Source: Candidatus Aminicenantes bacterium | GTDB lineage: Bacteria > Acidobacteriota > Aminicenantia > Aminicenantales > JAFGBC01 | DNA length: 64,000 nt | Direction of reading: 5' to 3' | Assembly (NCBI GenBank): GCA_963702005.1 | Contig: OY969696.1 | Coordinates: 4,224,001 to 4,288,000 of the forward strand | Shown here: positions 517 through 64,000 of the stretch, piece by piece | How positions within the stretch are numbered: the stretch's first letter is position 1 | How the letters are laid out: each line of letters opens with the position of its first letter | Made by a program: the position numbers and the translations under genes | Notes under the pieces: model-generated | The model's database searches: none | What the model saw: the letters and a program-made list of their open reading frames with translations, nothing else | What the model was told of the DNA's origin: nothing

Positions 517-544
517 ATTATGGCACAACGGCCCACCGTGTCAA
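517..544 (-). promoter_or_regulatory. sigma70-type promoter for speD
   Basis: Minus strand TTGACA (544-539), 16 bp, CATAAT (522-517) with extended TGn. Confidence 0.55.
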
Positions 545-652
545 CCCTTCGACTCCCCGGCATGAATGCCGGGGCTTGCTCAGGGTTAACCCTGAGCCTC
601 GCTTCTCGTCCCCGCCTTGAAAGGCGGGGCTTAGCGTCGGCGAACGGGTCAA
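540..652. mobile_element. Small palindromic non-autonomous element, copy 1 (MITE/REP/IS200-IS605-end-like)
   Basis: ~90% identical to 63683-63794; hairpins CCCCGGCATGAATGCCGGGG, GCTCAGGGTTAACCCTGAGC, CCCCGCCTTGAAAGGCGGGG; GTCAA at both ends. Confidence 0.8.
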
Positions 653-49308: not shown

Positions 49309-49338
49309 ATTCTAACGGAGGCGCTCGGGGCGTGTCAA
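49309..49338 (-). promoter_or_regulatory. sigma70-type promoter for C25-like gene
   Basis: Minus strand TTGACA (49338-49333), 18 bp, TAGAAT (49314-49309). Confidence 0.55.
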
Positions 49339-49401
49339 ATCATCGACACTCATGGAAGCCATAAGTGCTGCAAGGCTGGGTGGCGTCGGCGAACGGGTCA
49401 A
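49334..49401. mobile_element. Small palindromic element, short copy 2
   Basis: First 14 bp GTCAAATCATCGAC and last 21 bp TGGCGTCGGCGAACGGGTCAA identical to the ends of 63683-63794; different 33 bp interior. Confidence 0.75.
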
Positions 49402-51599
49402 CGTGAAGGCCGGTCCTTGGTCGCCCGGCCGTCGCGGACGGAACGGGAACCGCCGTCGCCAACTTTCAGCCTCGCCAGGAAAACATCAATACCTCCGTTC
49501 GGACTCGAGTCATAAGCCTTCTTTATCGGAAAATCAGGGGAGGTGGTTCCGCCCAGGAGATAAATCGTCCCCGTATCGTCAACGGCCAGCTGCCCGCACG
49601 AATCCCCTCGATTCCCTCCGAGAAGAGTCGACCAGAGAAGGGTGTCCCCCGCCGGCGCGAATTTGGCGATATAGCCGTCCGTCTCGCCCTCCAGCGTCTT
49701 ATCGTAGGGATCGACCAACGGAATATCCGTGGATCCTGTCGAGCCCGTGACCAGGAACGCCCCGGTCTTGTCCAGAACGATATGCGCGAGGCTGTCGGCC
49801 TTCCTTCCGCCCAGGTAGGTGGAAAAAGCCAAGGACTTGCCGTTAGGACGCAGTTTAGTCACGAAGGCATCGAGGTTTCCGTTTCGCTTGCTGTCATAAG
49901 CGTTCTTGACCGGAAAATTAAAAGACTCGGTGATCCCGACGACATAGGCGGCTCCGGACCGGTCGACCTGGATATCCCAAGGCCAGTCGTAGGCGCTCCC
50001 GCCCAGAAAGGTCGAATAGACAAGGGTGCGGCCCGAGGGCGAGAATTTCGTTACAAAAGCGTCGATATGACCGTTGTAGGTCGAATCGAAGGCGTCCTTG
50101 ACGGGGAAGTTCGAGGATAAGGTCGGGCCGGCGACATAGGCCGAGCCGGCCCCGTCGACCGCGATGCAGGCGGTGCTCGACTCGCTCGCCGTCCCTCCCA
50201 GAAACGTGGACCAGACCAGGCTCTTTCCGGAAGCGGCCAGCTTCGCGACATAGGCGTCCCAGATGCCGTTGAAGCTCGGATCGTAAGCGGCCTTGACGGG
50301 GAAATCGGGCGACTTCGTGCACCCGGCCAGATAAATATCGCCCTTCCCATCCACGGCCATATCGCTGGCGAATTCGTTTCGAGATCCGCCCAAATAGGTC
50401 GAAAAGACGATGGCGTCTCCCTGGGCCGACAACTTGGTGACGACGGCGTCAGTTTCGCCGTTCAAGGCGGCATCATATCCGTCCTTAACCGGGTAATCCG
50501 GGGAATTGCTCGATCCGGCGACGATGATCGCGCCGCCCGTATCCAAAGCCAGGCCGGCGGCATCTTCGTCCTTGGTTCCGCCCAGGAAAGTCGCGAACAC
50601 AAGGCTTTTTCCGTCCGGCTTGAATTTGACGATGAAGATGTCGTTGGCTCCGCCCAGGGTCAGGTCGGCGCCGCCCTTGACGGGGAAATCGGGAGAGGCC
50701 GTATCTCCGCAGACGCAGATAGAGCCGTCGGCGTCCAGTTTGATGTCGACGCCATACTCGTCCCCTTTTCCTCCCAAGTAGGTCGAGGACACGAGTACGA
50801 TCGGATCGATGAACAGGGGATGGCTTCGATCATAGGGACCGACTCGGAAACCATAGGAATTTCCGGCGATCCTCCTGAATTCGGTCTCGACGGCGCGTCT
50901 CCGGCCGTCGACGATCTGATAGCCCTCGGGTTTGCGGTGAATCGGATTAGCGAACCGGGTCCGGACGGCCAGATCCCCTTGGGAATCGGCCAGGACCTTG
51001 CCCGCGTCGCGATATTCGAACCGGATATCCTCGGGATTCCCGCCCGGCGCCACGATCCAGTCGTATTCGAGCTCGTTGTCGGTCCCGTAAACCTTGAGGT
51101 CGATGGACTTATAAAGATCCTCGTAGAGGACCGATTCGGCCGCGGGGACGGACGTCGGCACGCCTCCCTCGCCCCCGCCGATGAAGAAATGGACCCGGGG
51201 ATTATCCGCGCCGAAGGGAACGACGCCAGGCTCCGGATTAGCGCCAAGGAACACGAGCCGCGACACGTCTCTTTCGATATCGGCCGGAGCGGACGCCCTC
51301 CTCTCGCCGCTCGGCATGGGAGGCGGGGCCGAACCGGCCCTGCTTCTCCAAAAGTCAAAGACCAGCCCTTCTTTCGTCAGCCACAGAGTCATCCCCGATC
51401 TCCGGGCGTAAAAAAGAGCCTGGGCGTCCACTTGGCCGCGATTGGGCCAGAACGCGAGAGGCAGACTCGAGAAGAGGGGACTCGCCGCGACCGACGGGGC
51501 GGCCGGACCCGGGCGGGCCCCGGTCCGGGATTGAGAGACCGCCATAAAACCAAGGCCAAAGAACGTCAGGGCGGAAAAAACAATAGCTTTCTTGAGCAT
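49398..51599 (-). CDS. Secreted SBBP (beta-propeller) repeat protein
   Basis: Signal peptide; NRGQ, LEYDWIVAPG; repeated STYLGG-G-T-S-DFPVK-AYD-DAFVTK. Confidence 0.88.
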   Translation of the reverse strand: MLKKAIVFSALTFFGLGFMAVSQSRTGARPGPAAPSVAASPLFSSLPLAFWPNRGQVDAQALFYARRSGMTLWLTKEGLVFDFWRSRAGSAPPPMPSGERRASAPADIERDVSRLVFLGANPEPGVVPFGADNPRVHFFIGGGEGGVPTSVPAAESVLYEDLYKSIDLKVYGTDNELEYDWIVAPGGNPEDIRFEYRDAGKVLADSQGDLAVRTRFANPIHRKPEGYQIVDGRRRAVETEFRRIAGNSYGFRVGPYDRSHPLFIDPIVLVSSTYLGGKGDEYGVDIKLDADGSICVCGDTASPDFPVKGGADLTLGGANDIFIVKFKPDGKSLVFATFLGGTKDEDAAGLALDTGGAIIVAGSSNSPDYPVKDGYDAALNGETDAVVTKLSAQGDAIVFSTYLGGSRNEFASDMAVDGKGDIYLAGCTKSPDFPVKAAYDPSFNGIWDAYVAKLAASGKSLVWSTFLGGTASESSTACIAVDGAGSAYVAGPTLSSNFPVKDAFDSTYNGHIDAFVTKFSPSGRTLVYSTFLGGSAYDWPWDIQVDRSGAAYVVGITESFNFPVKNAYDSKRNGNLDAFVTKLRPNGKSLAFSTYLGGRKADSLAHIVLDKTGAFLVTGSTGSTDIPLVDPYDKTLEGETDGYIAKFAPAGDTLLWSTLLGGNRGDSCGQLAVDDTGTIYLLGGTTSPDFPIKKAYDSSPNGGIDVFLARLKVGDGGSRSVRDGRATKDRPSR

Positions 51600-62326: not shown

Positions 62327-63649
62327 TCAGGGCAGCTTCGACAGCATTTTCGTGAACCCGGGCTTCTTCATCATCCGCCCCATCTCGAAGAATTGCTTGA
62401 GAAGCTGGTTGACGTCGGAAACGGGGCGGCCGCTTCCCCGGGCGATCCGGAGCCGGCGCCGGCCGTCGATCGTCCGGGGATCGGCCCGTTCCCGGGCCGT
62501 CATCGAGTTGATGATGGCCTCGAAATGGACGATCTTTTTGTCGTCCAGGGCCAGCTTGGAGGCATCTTTGAACGGCCCCGCCTTGGGGAGCTGCCCGAGG
62601 ATCTGGGACATGGGACCCATTTTTCGGACCTGAACGAGCTGTTTGCGGAAGTCGGCCAGGGTGAATTCCTGACGCCGGAGTTTCCGGGCCATCTCCTCGG
62701 CCTCTTGGAAGTCGGCGGACTCCTCGGCCTTCTCGATCAGGCTCAGGATGTCGCCCATGCCCAGGATGCGGGAGGCCATCCGGTCCGGATGGAAGATCTC
62801 GAGCTTGTCGTATTTTTCTCCGACCCCGATGAATTTGATGGGCCGGCCCGTCACGGACACGATGGACAGGGCCGCGCCGCCCCGGGCGTCCCCGTCGAGC
62901 TTGGTCAGGACGATCGAAGTCAGCCCGATCCGCTCCTCGAAGGCCCGGGCGCTCTTGACGGCGTCCTGGCCGGTCATGGCGTCGCCGACATAGATCGTCT
63001 CGACCGGCTTGAGGGCGTCCTTGACCATCCGGAGCTCCGTCATGAGCTCGTCGTCGATATGGAGACGGCCCGCCGTGTCTACGATAAGGGGGTCGAAACC
63101 CCGGTTCCGGGTGTGGGACACGAGTTCTTTCAGGGCGGCCGGAGGGTCGGCCATCCGGTCGGCCGTCATCCCGTAGAAGGGGACGTCGAGGGAGGCGGCG
63201 ATCATAGCCAGCTGGTCCTGGGCGGCCGGCCGCTTGAGGTCGAACGAAACGACCAGAGGGTTCTTGGCCAGGCCCTTGACCCAGCGAGCGAGCTTGCCGC
63301 AGGTCGTCGTCTTGCCGCTCCCTTGGAGCCCGACCAGCATCAGGATCGAGGGCGGCGCCGGAGCGAAGGCGATCGGCTTGTCGGAGCCGCCCAGGACGGC
63401 GACGAGCTCGTCCCGGACGATCTTGATGACTTGCTGGGCGGGCGTCAGGCTGTCAAGGACGGCCCTGTCCAAGGCCTTGATCCGGATCCGTTCGACGAAG
63501 TCCTTGACGACCTTGTAGTTGACGTCGGCTTCGAGGAGGGCCAGCCGGATCATGCGGAGGGCCTCGGCCATGTTCTTTTCGGTGACCTTGGCCTCGCCCC
63601 GCAAAAATCTAAGGACCGCTTGGAGCCGGTCCGAAAGCTGGTCGAGCAT
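62327..63649 (-). CDS. ffh: Signal recognition particle protein
   Basis: ALLEADV, GLQGSGKTTT, DTAGR, TKLDGDARGGAALS, RILGMGD, RIARGSG. Confidence 0.98.
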   Translation of the reverse strand: MLDQLSDRLQAVLRFLRGEAKVTEKNMAEALRMIRLALLEADVNYKVVKDFVERIRIKALDRAVLDSLTPAQQVIKIVRDELVAVLGGSDKPIAFAPAPPSILMLVGLQGSGKTTTCGKLARWVKGLAKNPLVVSFDLKRPAAQDQLAMIAASLDVPFYGMTADRMADPPAALKELVSHTRNRGFDPLIVDTAGRLHIDDELMTELRMVKDALKPVETIYVGDAMTGQDAVKSARAFEERIGLTSIVLTKLDGDARGGAALSIVSVTGRPIKFIGVGEKYDKLEIFHPDRMASRILGMGDILSLIEKAEESADFQEAEEMARKLRRQEFTLADFRKQLVQVRKMGPMSQILGQLPKAGPFKDASKLALDDKKIVHFEAIINSMTARERADPRTIDGRRRLRIARGSGRPVSDVNQLLKQFFEMGRMMKKPGFTKMLSKLP

Positions 63650-63658
63650 GGCTTTCCC

Positions 63659-63687
63659 ATCATAGGCCAAGCCGCGGGAGCGGTCAA
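63659..63687 (-). promoter_or_regulatory. sigma70-type promoter for ffh (near-leaderless)
   Basis: Minus strand TTGACC (63687-63682), 17 bp, TATGAT (63664-63659); ATG at 63649. Confidence 0.55.
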
Positions 63688-63794
63688 ATCATCGACTCCC
63701 CGGCCTGAAGGCCGGGGCTTGTTCATGATTAACCCTGAGCCTCGCTCTCATCCCCGCCTTGAAAGGCGGGGCTTGGCGTCGGCGAACGGGTCAA
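63683..63794. mobile_element. Small palindromic non-autonomous element, copy 3
   Basis: ~90% identical to 540-652 with a compensatory base-pair change in hairpin 1; GTCAA at both ends. Confidence 0.8.
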
Positions 63795-63815: not shown

Positions 63816-63844
63816 TTGACAATCCCCCCGATTTCCATTATAAA
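63816..63844 (+). promoter_or_regulatory. sigma70-type promoter
   Basis: TTGACA-17 bp-TATAAA. Confidence 0.65.
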
Positions 63845-63961
63845 AGAGTCAGATTGATGTTAATGTGTTTCATTCGGACGGCGGGGCTTATTTTTAACTG
63901 AGAAATCGAAGGCTCTTCGTTGGGCCATGGATAAACGTTTATTTTTAGGAGGAGAGAAGGA

Positions 63962-64000
63962 ATGAGCAAAATGAAGAAAGGTTTCGTTCGCTACGGAGCT
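63962..64000 (+). CDS. 5' end of a gene truncated by the window edge
   Basis: AGGAGG RBS at 63947-63952 then ATG (MSKMKKGFVRYGA). Confidence 0.5.
   Translation, partial: MSKMKKGFVRYGA

Follow-up and report, generated by a model that had tools for sequence, protein, structure and literature searches.

Small hairpin elements inserted after TTGAC, the -35 word of promoter-like sites, in a Candidatus Aminicenantes genome

Introduction

Among described mobile DNAs, those closest to the element treated here are the IS200/IS605 insertion sequences (IS) and their non-autonomous derivatives, the palindrome-associated transposable elements (PATEs). IS608 of that family uses TTAC as its target and TCAA as its 3' end, two words that differ. 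The hairpin element that we analysed occurs three times in a stretch of 64,000 nucleotides of Candidatus Aminicenantes bacterium DNA (contig OY969696.1, positions 4,224,001 to 4,288,000; the whole stretch is called the window), which belongs to one contig of 4.31 Mb with 60% G+C. We conclude that the element is very probably a non-autonomous family, with units of 63 to ~400 nt, which transposes in single-stranded form as IS200/IS605 elements do, by the 'peel and paste' chemistry of Y1 HUH enzymes. What seems to be new is that the target, the right end of the element and the -35 consensus word are one and the same, so that insertions sit on promoters and regenerate them. No published element that targets TTGAC or -35 boxes turned up in the literature listings and abstracts searched.

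IS608 is described as being cleaved 19 nt 5' of its left hairpin and 10 nt 3' of its right hairpin, with a tetranucleotide guide 5' of each hairpin foot (PMC3597680), and IS608, ISDra2 and other family members are described as targeting the lagging-strand template (PMC5027513). The hairpin element shares with this family the lack of terminal inverted repeats, the presence of subterminal hairpins (a single hairpin in its 63-78 nt subfamilies), a left linker longer than the right linker, 3' insertion at a short specific sequence without duplication and an active strand that is the lagging-strand template (PMC3597680, PMC5027513). It differs in having one pentamer, TTGAC, both as target and as 3' end, in that it is unusually modular with one subfamily reduced to a single hairpin, and in that no Y1 gene with the element ends was found, the IS200-like IS of the genome having unrelated ends.

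Three further kinds of repeat invite comparison. Repetitive extragenic palindromic (REP) sequences, including bacterial interspersed mosaic elements (BIMEs) and REP doublets (REPINs), together with their REP-associated tyrosine transposases (RAYTs), are likewise high-copy, GC-rich, intergenic hairpins that form mosaics and rely on a Y1 HUH enzyme acting in trans. Unlike these, the hairpin element flanks no RAYT gene in the loci examined, is asymmetric with defined ends and a demonstrable target pentamer, and lies upstream of co-oriented genes rather than downstream. The CGTC-tagged palindromic repeats are also small hairpins in genomes having Y1 genes and are reported with no dedicated transposase found, but their stems are said to open with A-T pairs right after CGTC (PMC3733652), whereas the stem here starts with CCCC; the element has no GTAG tag, and 5 nt separate its CGTC from the foot of the left hairpin. 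In IS having an outward-facing -35 end, the terminal TTGAC serves as the -35 box of the neighbouring gene, as it appears to do here at promoter-like sites, but here the -35 box pre-existed and is merely regenerated, and a promoter is not usually created. Unlike classical miniature inverted-repeat transposable elements (MITEs), the hairpin element has neither inverted repeats nor a target duplication.

The repeat family and its insertion junction

The initial annotation, made from the window sequence, described three copies of the element at 540-652, 49334-49401 and 63683-63794 in the same orientation, each starting and ending with GTCAA. The positions, the shared orientation and the GTCAA at both ends of each copy were borne out, as was the count of about 11 differences between copies 1 and 3 (90.3% identity across 113 positions). 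Here all window coordinates refer to the 64,000-nt stretch, and the element is read on the complement of the strand used in that annotation. G000 denotes the genome under study, G001 a genome in the same genus, and G005, G013 and G025 genomes of another family in the same order.

A profile was built from 34 full-length copies, and BLASTN, which the initial annotation had advised, and nhmmer were run over the whole genome. The 145 nhmmer matches at 112 loci establish the element as a genuine multi-copy family rather than a chance match. A rule allowing at most one mismatch per end motif gave 112 well-defined units with both ends present; a few real units, such as those at 599305 and 727602, just miss the rule. 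On the informative strand the layout is TTGAC followed by CCGTTCGCCGAC, the hairpins and GTCGAnnnnTTGAC. In fuller form the left end is CCGTTCGCCGA(C/G)GC directly after TTGAC, a variant being written CCGTTCGCCGAC/GGC. The units, 63 to ~400 nt long, are modular in that subfamilies with differing interiors have both ends in common: the 107-108 nt type has a central palindrome between its left and right hairpins, the types of ~78 nt and 63-70 nt have a single hairpin each, and composites reach ~400 nt. In tandem arrays the next unit starts directly after the terminal TTGAC of the preceding unit. The alignment of the 34 full copies contains no terminal inverted repeats. Six copies of the youngest subfamily, of which copy 3 is a member, are identical in the genome, indicating recent activity.

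Both remaining genomes of the genus gave strong matches, as did three genomes from another family in the same order, and two more genomes gave weaker ones; in all, 10 of 41 genomes, G000 included, contained matches. When one genome per species was scanned for TTGAC joined to the left end, at least 99 stretches came up, and most of those listed are from Candidatus Aminicenantes.

The junctions of these units define the target. The right-end pentamer is TTGAC in 105 of the 112 units and the 5' flanking pentamer is TTGAC in 83, with ATGAC, CTGAC or GTGAC in 14 more. In those 14 units the flanking pentamer differs from the unit's own 3' TTGAC, and because the 5' pentamer varies while the 3' TTGAC stays, the first TTGAC is flanking DNA and not a duplicated site. 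The initial annotation had offered TTGAC as a target or duplicated site. Its role as target is upheld by the pentamer counts and the empty sites, whereas the single pentamer at the empty sites contradicts duplication. Likewise, the right-hand GTCAA of each window copy (648-652, 49397-49401 and 63790-63794), which had been taken as an element end, proved to be flanking target DNA.

At least seven clean filled/empty pairs were obtained and none shows a duplication. Upstream of speD, G001 reads …GCGACC TTGACA GGCGGGGCCGTTGTGA CATAAT… without the element, and G000 has 108 nt directly after that TTGAC. Conversely, six loci filled in G001 are precisely empty in G000 with a single pentamer: L021 at TTAAC (TTAAT in G000), L025 at CTTAC, L057 at TTGAC (TTAAC in G000), L059 at ATGAC, L063 at CTGAC (TAGAC in G000) and L066 at TTGAC. 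Three others (L064, L069 and L072) are also colinear but their pentamers have diverged. Two tandem units at G000 3370022 are absent from G001, which reads TTGACA-17-TATCAT there. Loci L026 and L071, G000 185800-194200 (not syntenic in G001) and G000 2049993 (not colinear) could not be used as empty sites. The empty sites may represent either the ancestral state or precise excision, and both fit the proposed mechanism. In 73 of 77 units TTGAC is followed by A or T, and in none by G, although G and C together follow half of the free intergenic sites.

Some insertions fall inside coding frames and at start codons. At G000:C1:3914061-3914169, and at L059 in G001 (empty near G000:C1:738015), the insertion follows an ATGAC that is a likely start codon, with GGAGG before it. 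After such an insertion the terminal TTGAC provides an in-frame TTG having GGAG 8 nt upstream, with a 415-codon frame at 3914061; a gene hit in this way may survive with the new TTG as its predicted start.

Several loci differ between relatives in their content. The ffh site (63683-63794; L035 in G001) is filled by 107 nt in G000 and by ~237 nt in G001, and a second doubly filled site (G000:C1:593335-593409 and G001:C67) has 70 nt versus 237 nt. Differing fills of one promoter site could be due to independent hits on a hot site or to turnover, in which a unit inserts into the TTGAC of another and an internal deletion follows. At G000:C1:596432-599484 (L193, 3933-6985), ~3 kb between two units in direct orientation correspond to ~110 nt in G001:C67, a difference that may be a deletion via recombination between units. 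IS110-family insertions lie inside element units at G000:C1:3583725-3585181 (L041) and 3155964-3157374 (L042), outside the window; their proteins of 343 and 345 residues match DEDD_Tnp_IS110 and Transposase_20, and the insertions occur in either orientation and have matching imperfect inverted ends. These IS110-family insertions seem to use the hairpin element as a target. The same two loci had been considered as autonomous elements, being long left-end/right-end pairs, and were rejected when they proved to be IS110-family insertions inside units.

Replication strand and promoter-like sites

The GC skew of the genome changes sign near 0.5 and 2.75 Mb, and dnaA, at 0.504 Mb, coincides with the skew minimum. 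The strand that reads TTGAC…TTGAC lies on the template of the lagging strand for 94 of the 112 units (p 1.3e-13), or for 93 of them if origin and terminus are taken from GC skew alone. Gene orientation is ruled out as the cause because the leading strand carries only 54% of the called genes and because the bias is present both in units with a co-oriented downstream gene (73 versus 12) and in the remaining units (17 versus 6); the genes were called with a simple open reading frame (ORF) scorer of our own that takes the longest start. The genome's own 11-copy IS200-like element has the same bias, in 9 of its 11 copies.

The initial annotation held that the element sits exactly on -35 boxes. The three window copies fit this, but genome-wide only about half of the units lie at promoter-like sites. 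We scored a -10 as TAnnnT at a spacing of 16-18, a strict rule by which copy 1 (CATAAT) and several TATAAA sites count as misses. A -10 at the proper spacing followed 604 of all 9399 TTGAC sites in the genome (6.4%), 422 of 1683 intergenic sites (25%), 275 of 570 intergenic sites located 25-150 nt upstream of a co-oriented ORF (48%) and 51 of 101 element right ends (50%), and thus the enrichment that the initial annotation had anticipated was found. Past intergenic TTGACN, TAnnnT peaks at 17-18 nt (13.4% and 9.8%, versus ~1% at other spacings), a sharp maximum suggesting that a TTGAC promoter type is in use in G000.

A -10 was present in 48 of 77 units having a TTGAC target versus 3 of 24 units having other targets. 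Together with the empty sites, this split argues that the -35 boxes predate insertion and that the element regenerates them. The orthologous empty sites at speD (in G001), at ffh (in three genomes of another family) and at two further sites hold a single TTGAC within a -35/-10 pair, as the initial annotation had proposed. The ffh upstream regions of G013, G025 and G005 read TTGACT-17-TAAGAT or TATGAT and have no element, and L066 reads TTGACA-17-TATAAA in both G000 and G001. Hence, the element's own TTGAC does not usually make a promoter, but stands in for an earlier -35 box.

A co-oriented downstream gene is faced by 85 of 108 units, spacers between tandem genes giving 41 versus 7, and promoter-like units have a median of 54 nt between right end and downstream ORF. 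Among intergenic TTGAC sites of the lagging-template strand, units occupied 41 of 253 that are promoter-like and 23 of 620 that are not (odds ratio 5.0, p 1.5e-9); the figure for the opposite strand was 7 of 196. When only sites with A or T next were counted, promoter-like and other sites stood at 39:21 occupied versus 177:221 free (odds ratio 2.3, p 0.0035). If TTGAC(A/T) on the template of the lagging strand is preferred, this by itself suffices to reach the -35 boxes of genes transcribed with replication. Elsewhere in the group, units that have TTGAC at either side showed a -10 in 21 of 46 cases and A or T next in 46 of 49, these genomes being related to G000, with some sites orthologous, and so not independent. 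Four RNA runs gave 0.04 of the words in one and none in three, and since these data cover contigs only they cannot show transcription starts.

Hairpins and end architecture

As single strands, copies 1 and 3 fold much better than shuffled sequences (z -4.15 and -3.74, respectively). The compensatory A-T to C-G swap noted in the initial annotation is real: of 51 distinct sequences, 31 have A-T and 18 have C-G as the uppermost pair of the right hairpin. A 5-6 bp outer stem around the right hairpin also covaries between subfamilies (AACCCC/GGGGTT, AATCAT/ATGATT, AATCC/GGATT, AACCC/GGGTT and AAACC/GGTTT). The stems were counted by hand, the overall RNAalifold structure from our own alignment being unconvincing. 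The left linker, from the junction to the hairpin, is 16-18 nt, whereas 10 nt separate the right hairpin and TTGAC. Both hairpins follow a CAAG or TAAG, whose CAA could pair with the TTG of TTGAC, as read from sequence only. Rfam 15 gave no match at gathering score in the whole window; the best weak match, over copy 1, scored 20.3 bits versus a cut-off of 50.

Search for the mobilizing enzyme

The 14 Y1_Tnp matches of G000 comprise 11 copies of the IS200-like element, two RAYT-like genes and one other Y1 gene. The IS200-like copies are near-identical and ~613 bp in length (e.g. 1259993-1260355), with ends unrelated to those of the hairpin element, and their hairpins share with it the design CCCCG-N3-tetraloop-N3-CGGGG. 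The RAYT-like genes, at G000:C1:2326424-2327077 (L043, 217 residues) and 713755-714693 (L044, 312 residues), are flanked by inverted palindromes of their own that have ~86 and ~46 genome copies. Thus two classical REPIN/RAYT systems coexist with the hairpin element in G000; the second of these has the GGGGTCAAACCTAC… palindrome, whose loop holds several IS200-like copies. The remaining Y1 gene is flanked by other repeats. G000 also has one match to Y2_Tnp (the IS91 type), a short frame of 223 residues at G000:C1:4152795-4153148 that matched in two pieces with no element nearby and is probably a remnant.

The initial annotation had suggested looking for TnpA, RAYT, IscB or TnpB genes flanked by element ends, and none was found in the loci examined. 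The sole end match at the Y1 loci of ten other genomes was an element fragment in the 3' part of the long RAYT-like ortholog of G001 (L053, 2190-2281), where it extends the open frame. RAYT-like genes were the only Y1 genes found in the element-bearing genomes G005, G013, G025, G040, G041, G043, G044 and G045.

Discussion

The anatomy and the strand bias fit single-strand transposition and thus the IS200/IS605-type interpretation of the initial annotation. In the mechanism that we propose, the active strand would be the complement of that given in the initial annotation and would consist of the left end, one to several GC-rich hairpins and the right end. Insertion would occur without duplication immediately 3' of TTGAC on the lagging-strand template, preferably before A or T. 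As the last five bases of the element are TTGAC, the downstream DNA would again be preceded by TTGAC, and since this 3' end equals the target the -35 box would be restored with its distance to the -10 unchanged. The core promoter would survive and 63-400 nt of hairpin DNA would replace what lay directly upstream. The data show the family and its ends, insertion without duplication, the preferred target, the strand bias, the connection to promoter-like sites that were there beforehand and the covariation of the structure; the enzyme class and the single-stranded intermediate are predictions. Five IS200/IS605 features that we tested are present in the element and a Y1 gene sharing its ends was not found; we therefore say that it works like these sequences and do not file it as a derivative of a known IS.

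Several results weigh against this mechanism or against the promoter connection. None of the 14 Y1 matches of G000 is bounded by element ends, and no element-ended Y1 gene was present at 10 Y1 loci of five relatives or at 17 Y1 loci of five further element-bearing genomes. At 80 element-bearing loci there was no Y1 gene beside a left end and no gene flanked by element ends; most of these genomes are drafts, in which multi-copy genes are often missing. G000 has no TnpB domain match. Across 41 genomes IS200-type tnpA and the element did not co-occur and no enzyme was singled out: the gene was not found in the element-bearing G005, G013 and G025, nor the element in the tnpA-bearing G010, G011, G017, G019 and G033. 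The fold of the short copy 2 is no better than those of shuffled sequences (z 0.32), its single weak hairpin being unlike the pair of hairpin ends of IS200/IS605, and 18-19 of the 112 units are oriented to the opposite strand. As for promoters, about half of the units are off promoter-like sites by the strict -10 rule, gene context comes from our own crude gene caller, and promoter status was assigned from consensus and from conservation at two genes, the use of these promoters being putative. The two- to five-fold excess that remains at promoter-like sites could reflect either the survival of harmless insertions or a real preference.

The alternative that survives best retains the same Y1 HUH single-strand chemistry: the element would be a REP/BIME-type repeat rather than an IS200/IS605 derivative, mobilized in trans by a single-copy RAYT-like Y1 protein, a domesticated enzyme. 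We regard this as possible, though distinctly the less likely way for matters to stand. By elimination a RAYT-like enzyme acting in trans is a serious candidate, because in several genomes that carry the element the only Y1 genes found were RAYT-like. Like BIMEs, the family is built as a mosaic; the REP flanking one RAYT gene holds GGTTTGACCCC, which resembles the tandem-unit junction GGGGTTGAC|CCG; and CGTC-tagged REPs, too, are reported without a dedicated transposase (PMC3733652). However, the RAYT genes of G000, G025, G013 and G005 are flanked by different palindromes of their own, and no one RAYT group is present in all element-bearing genomes, since G013 has the short group only and G025 the long group only. 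Moreover, the element has an asymmetric build and an upstream position relative to genes; REPs, by contrast, are reported to occur for the most part downstream of coding regions (PMC3733652).

Another class of enzyme that inserts beside a short specific sequence without duplication, for example a rolling-circle Y2 transposase like that of IS91 or a recombinase of the IS110 type, is improbable. G000 has a Y2_Tnp fragment and IS110-family genes, and IS91 inserts beside a tetranucleotide without duplicating it. However, the Y2 match is only the short 223-residue frame with no element nearby, and the IS110-family copies are separate insertions inside elements and have their own ends. The linker asymmetry and two-hairpin ends fit what is described for IS200/IS605 (PMC3597680).

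More improbable still is that the outward-facing -35 of the element builds new hybrid promoters at chance -10s ~17 bp away, selection keeping the useful ones. The TTGAC right end of 105 of the 112 units would permit this, and hybrid promoters formed by IS ends are well known. However, a -10 accompanies only 3 of the 24 units with a non-TTGAC target, compared with 48 of 77, and at speD, ffh, L066 and G000 3370022 the empty sites already pair a TTGAC with that -10 at an equal spacing.

The last two alternatives have hardly any probability. TTGAC on both sides of 83 of the 112 units resembles the 5-bp duplication of an ordinary cut-and-paste MITE moved by a DDE transposase, but the 5' pentamer is not TTGAC in 29 units while the right end is TTGAC in 105, empty sites have a single pentamer even when the target is TTAAC, CTTAC, ATGAC or CTGAC, terminal inverted repeats are lacking and the strand bias follows replication. 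An immobile structured RNA or protein-binding site kept by the host for regulation would account for the strong folds, the covariation and the position just upstream of promoters, but not for the lack of any Rfam match at gathering score (only weak ones, at E up to 1), for presence and absence with exact boundaries among close relatives, for insertions inside coding frames and at start codons, or for an orientation that follows replication independently of gene direction.

A further and more tentative idea, which we consider rather unlikely but worth stating, is that the identity of target and right end evolved as a device for 'seamless insertion', homing to the -35 hexamers of genes transcribed with replication and restoring the -35 box or, where the target was ATGAC, a TTG start. 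If this were true, the element would occupy, at little cost, roughly a sixth of the TTGAC-type promoters of its preferred strand, and it might be a standard upstream promoter boundary in the group, blocking upstream DNA and read-through. Mobile elements usually damage their targets or hide in neutral DNA. The hairpin element lands on the most conserved promoter word and restores it, so that spread through regulatory DNA is possible with core promoters left in place. With 41 of the 253 promoter-like TTGAC sites filled on the strand that it favours, the element is common enough to bear on the evolution of upstream regulation in a poorly known, uncultured group. The family also appears to offer a natural example of strand-specific single-strand insertion directed by a pentanucleotide, with the same promoters filled or empty in close relatives.

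Copies and neighbouring genes in the window

Copy 1, of the three-hairpin type, is on the minus strand; the inserted element proper is the 108 nt at 540..647, which the G001 site lacks. Its left-end motif CCGTTCGCCGACGC (647..634, minus strand) is the 5' start of the element and its terminal TTGAC (544..540, minus strand) the 3' end. The unduplicated target pentamer TTGAC lies outside the element at 648..652 (minus strand), corresponding to the single TTGAC of the empty site in G001. The left-end hairpin CCCCGCCT-TGAA-AGGCGGGG (610..629) starts 18 nt past the insertion junction on the minus strand. The right-end hairpin CCCCGGCA-TGAA-TGCCGGGG (555..574), with the covarying A-T or C-G top pair, is enclosed by the outer stem AACCCT (543-548)/AGGGTT (582-587), which spans 543..587 and takes in the TT of TTGAC.

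A promoter scanner recovered the three minus-strand -35/-10 pairs given in the initial annotation and nothing else promoter-like in those stretches, shuffled sequence giving 0.1-0.2 sites per stretch; the accompanying gene names are backed by Pfam (AdoMet_dc for speD, Peptidase_C25, and SRP54 for ffh). For speD the promoter-like site (517..544, minus strand) reads TTGACA-16-CATAAT, has a TG ahead of the -10 and scored 11/12, and its TTGAC is the 3' end of copy 1. Copy 2 (49334..49396, minus strand) belongs to the short 63-nt subfamily and has the usual left and right ends with one degenerate hairpin. Its target pentamer TTGAC (49397..49401, minus strand) shares bases with the stop codon that ends the upstream DUF7948/SBBP gene (49398-51599), and the promoter-like site of the Peptidase_C25-like gene, TTGACA-18-TAGAAT (49309..49338, minus strand), scored 11/12. 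Copy 3, 107 nt of the youngest subfamily (63683..63789, minus strand), has its target pentamer TTGAC at 63790..63794 (minus strand); the ffh promoter-like site TTGACC-17-TATGAT (63659..63687, minus strand) scored 10/12, with the -10 located 9 nt before the ATG.

This close placement of the ffh -10, just 9 nt ahead of the ATG (window 63647-63664), is found in both G000 and G001 and suggests a nearly leaderless ffh mRNA in these two genomes. In the three genomes of another family (loci L036-L038) the ffh leader is ~20-40 nt long and has a Shine-Dalgarno-like GGAGG or AGGGA. Beyond copy 3, a TTGACA-17-TATAAA on the plus strand (63817-63846) faces a divergent gene that starts at 63962 and is independent of the element.

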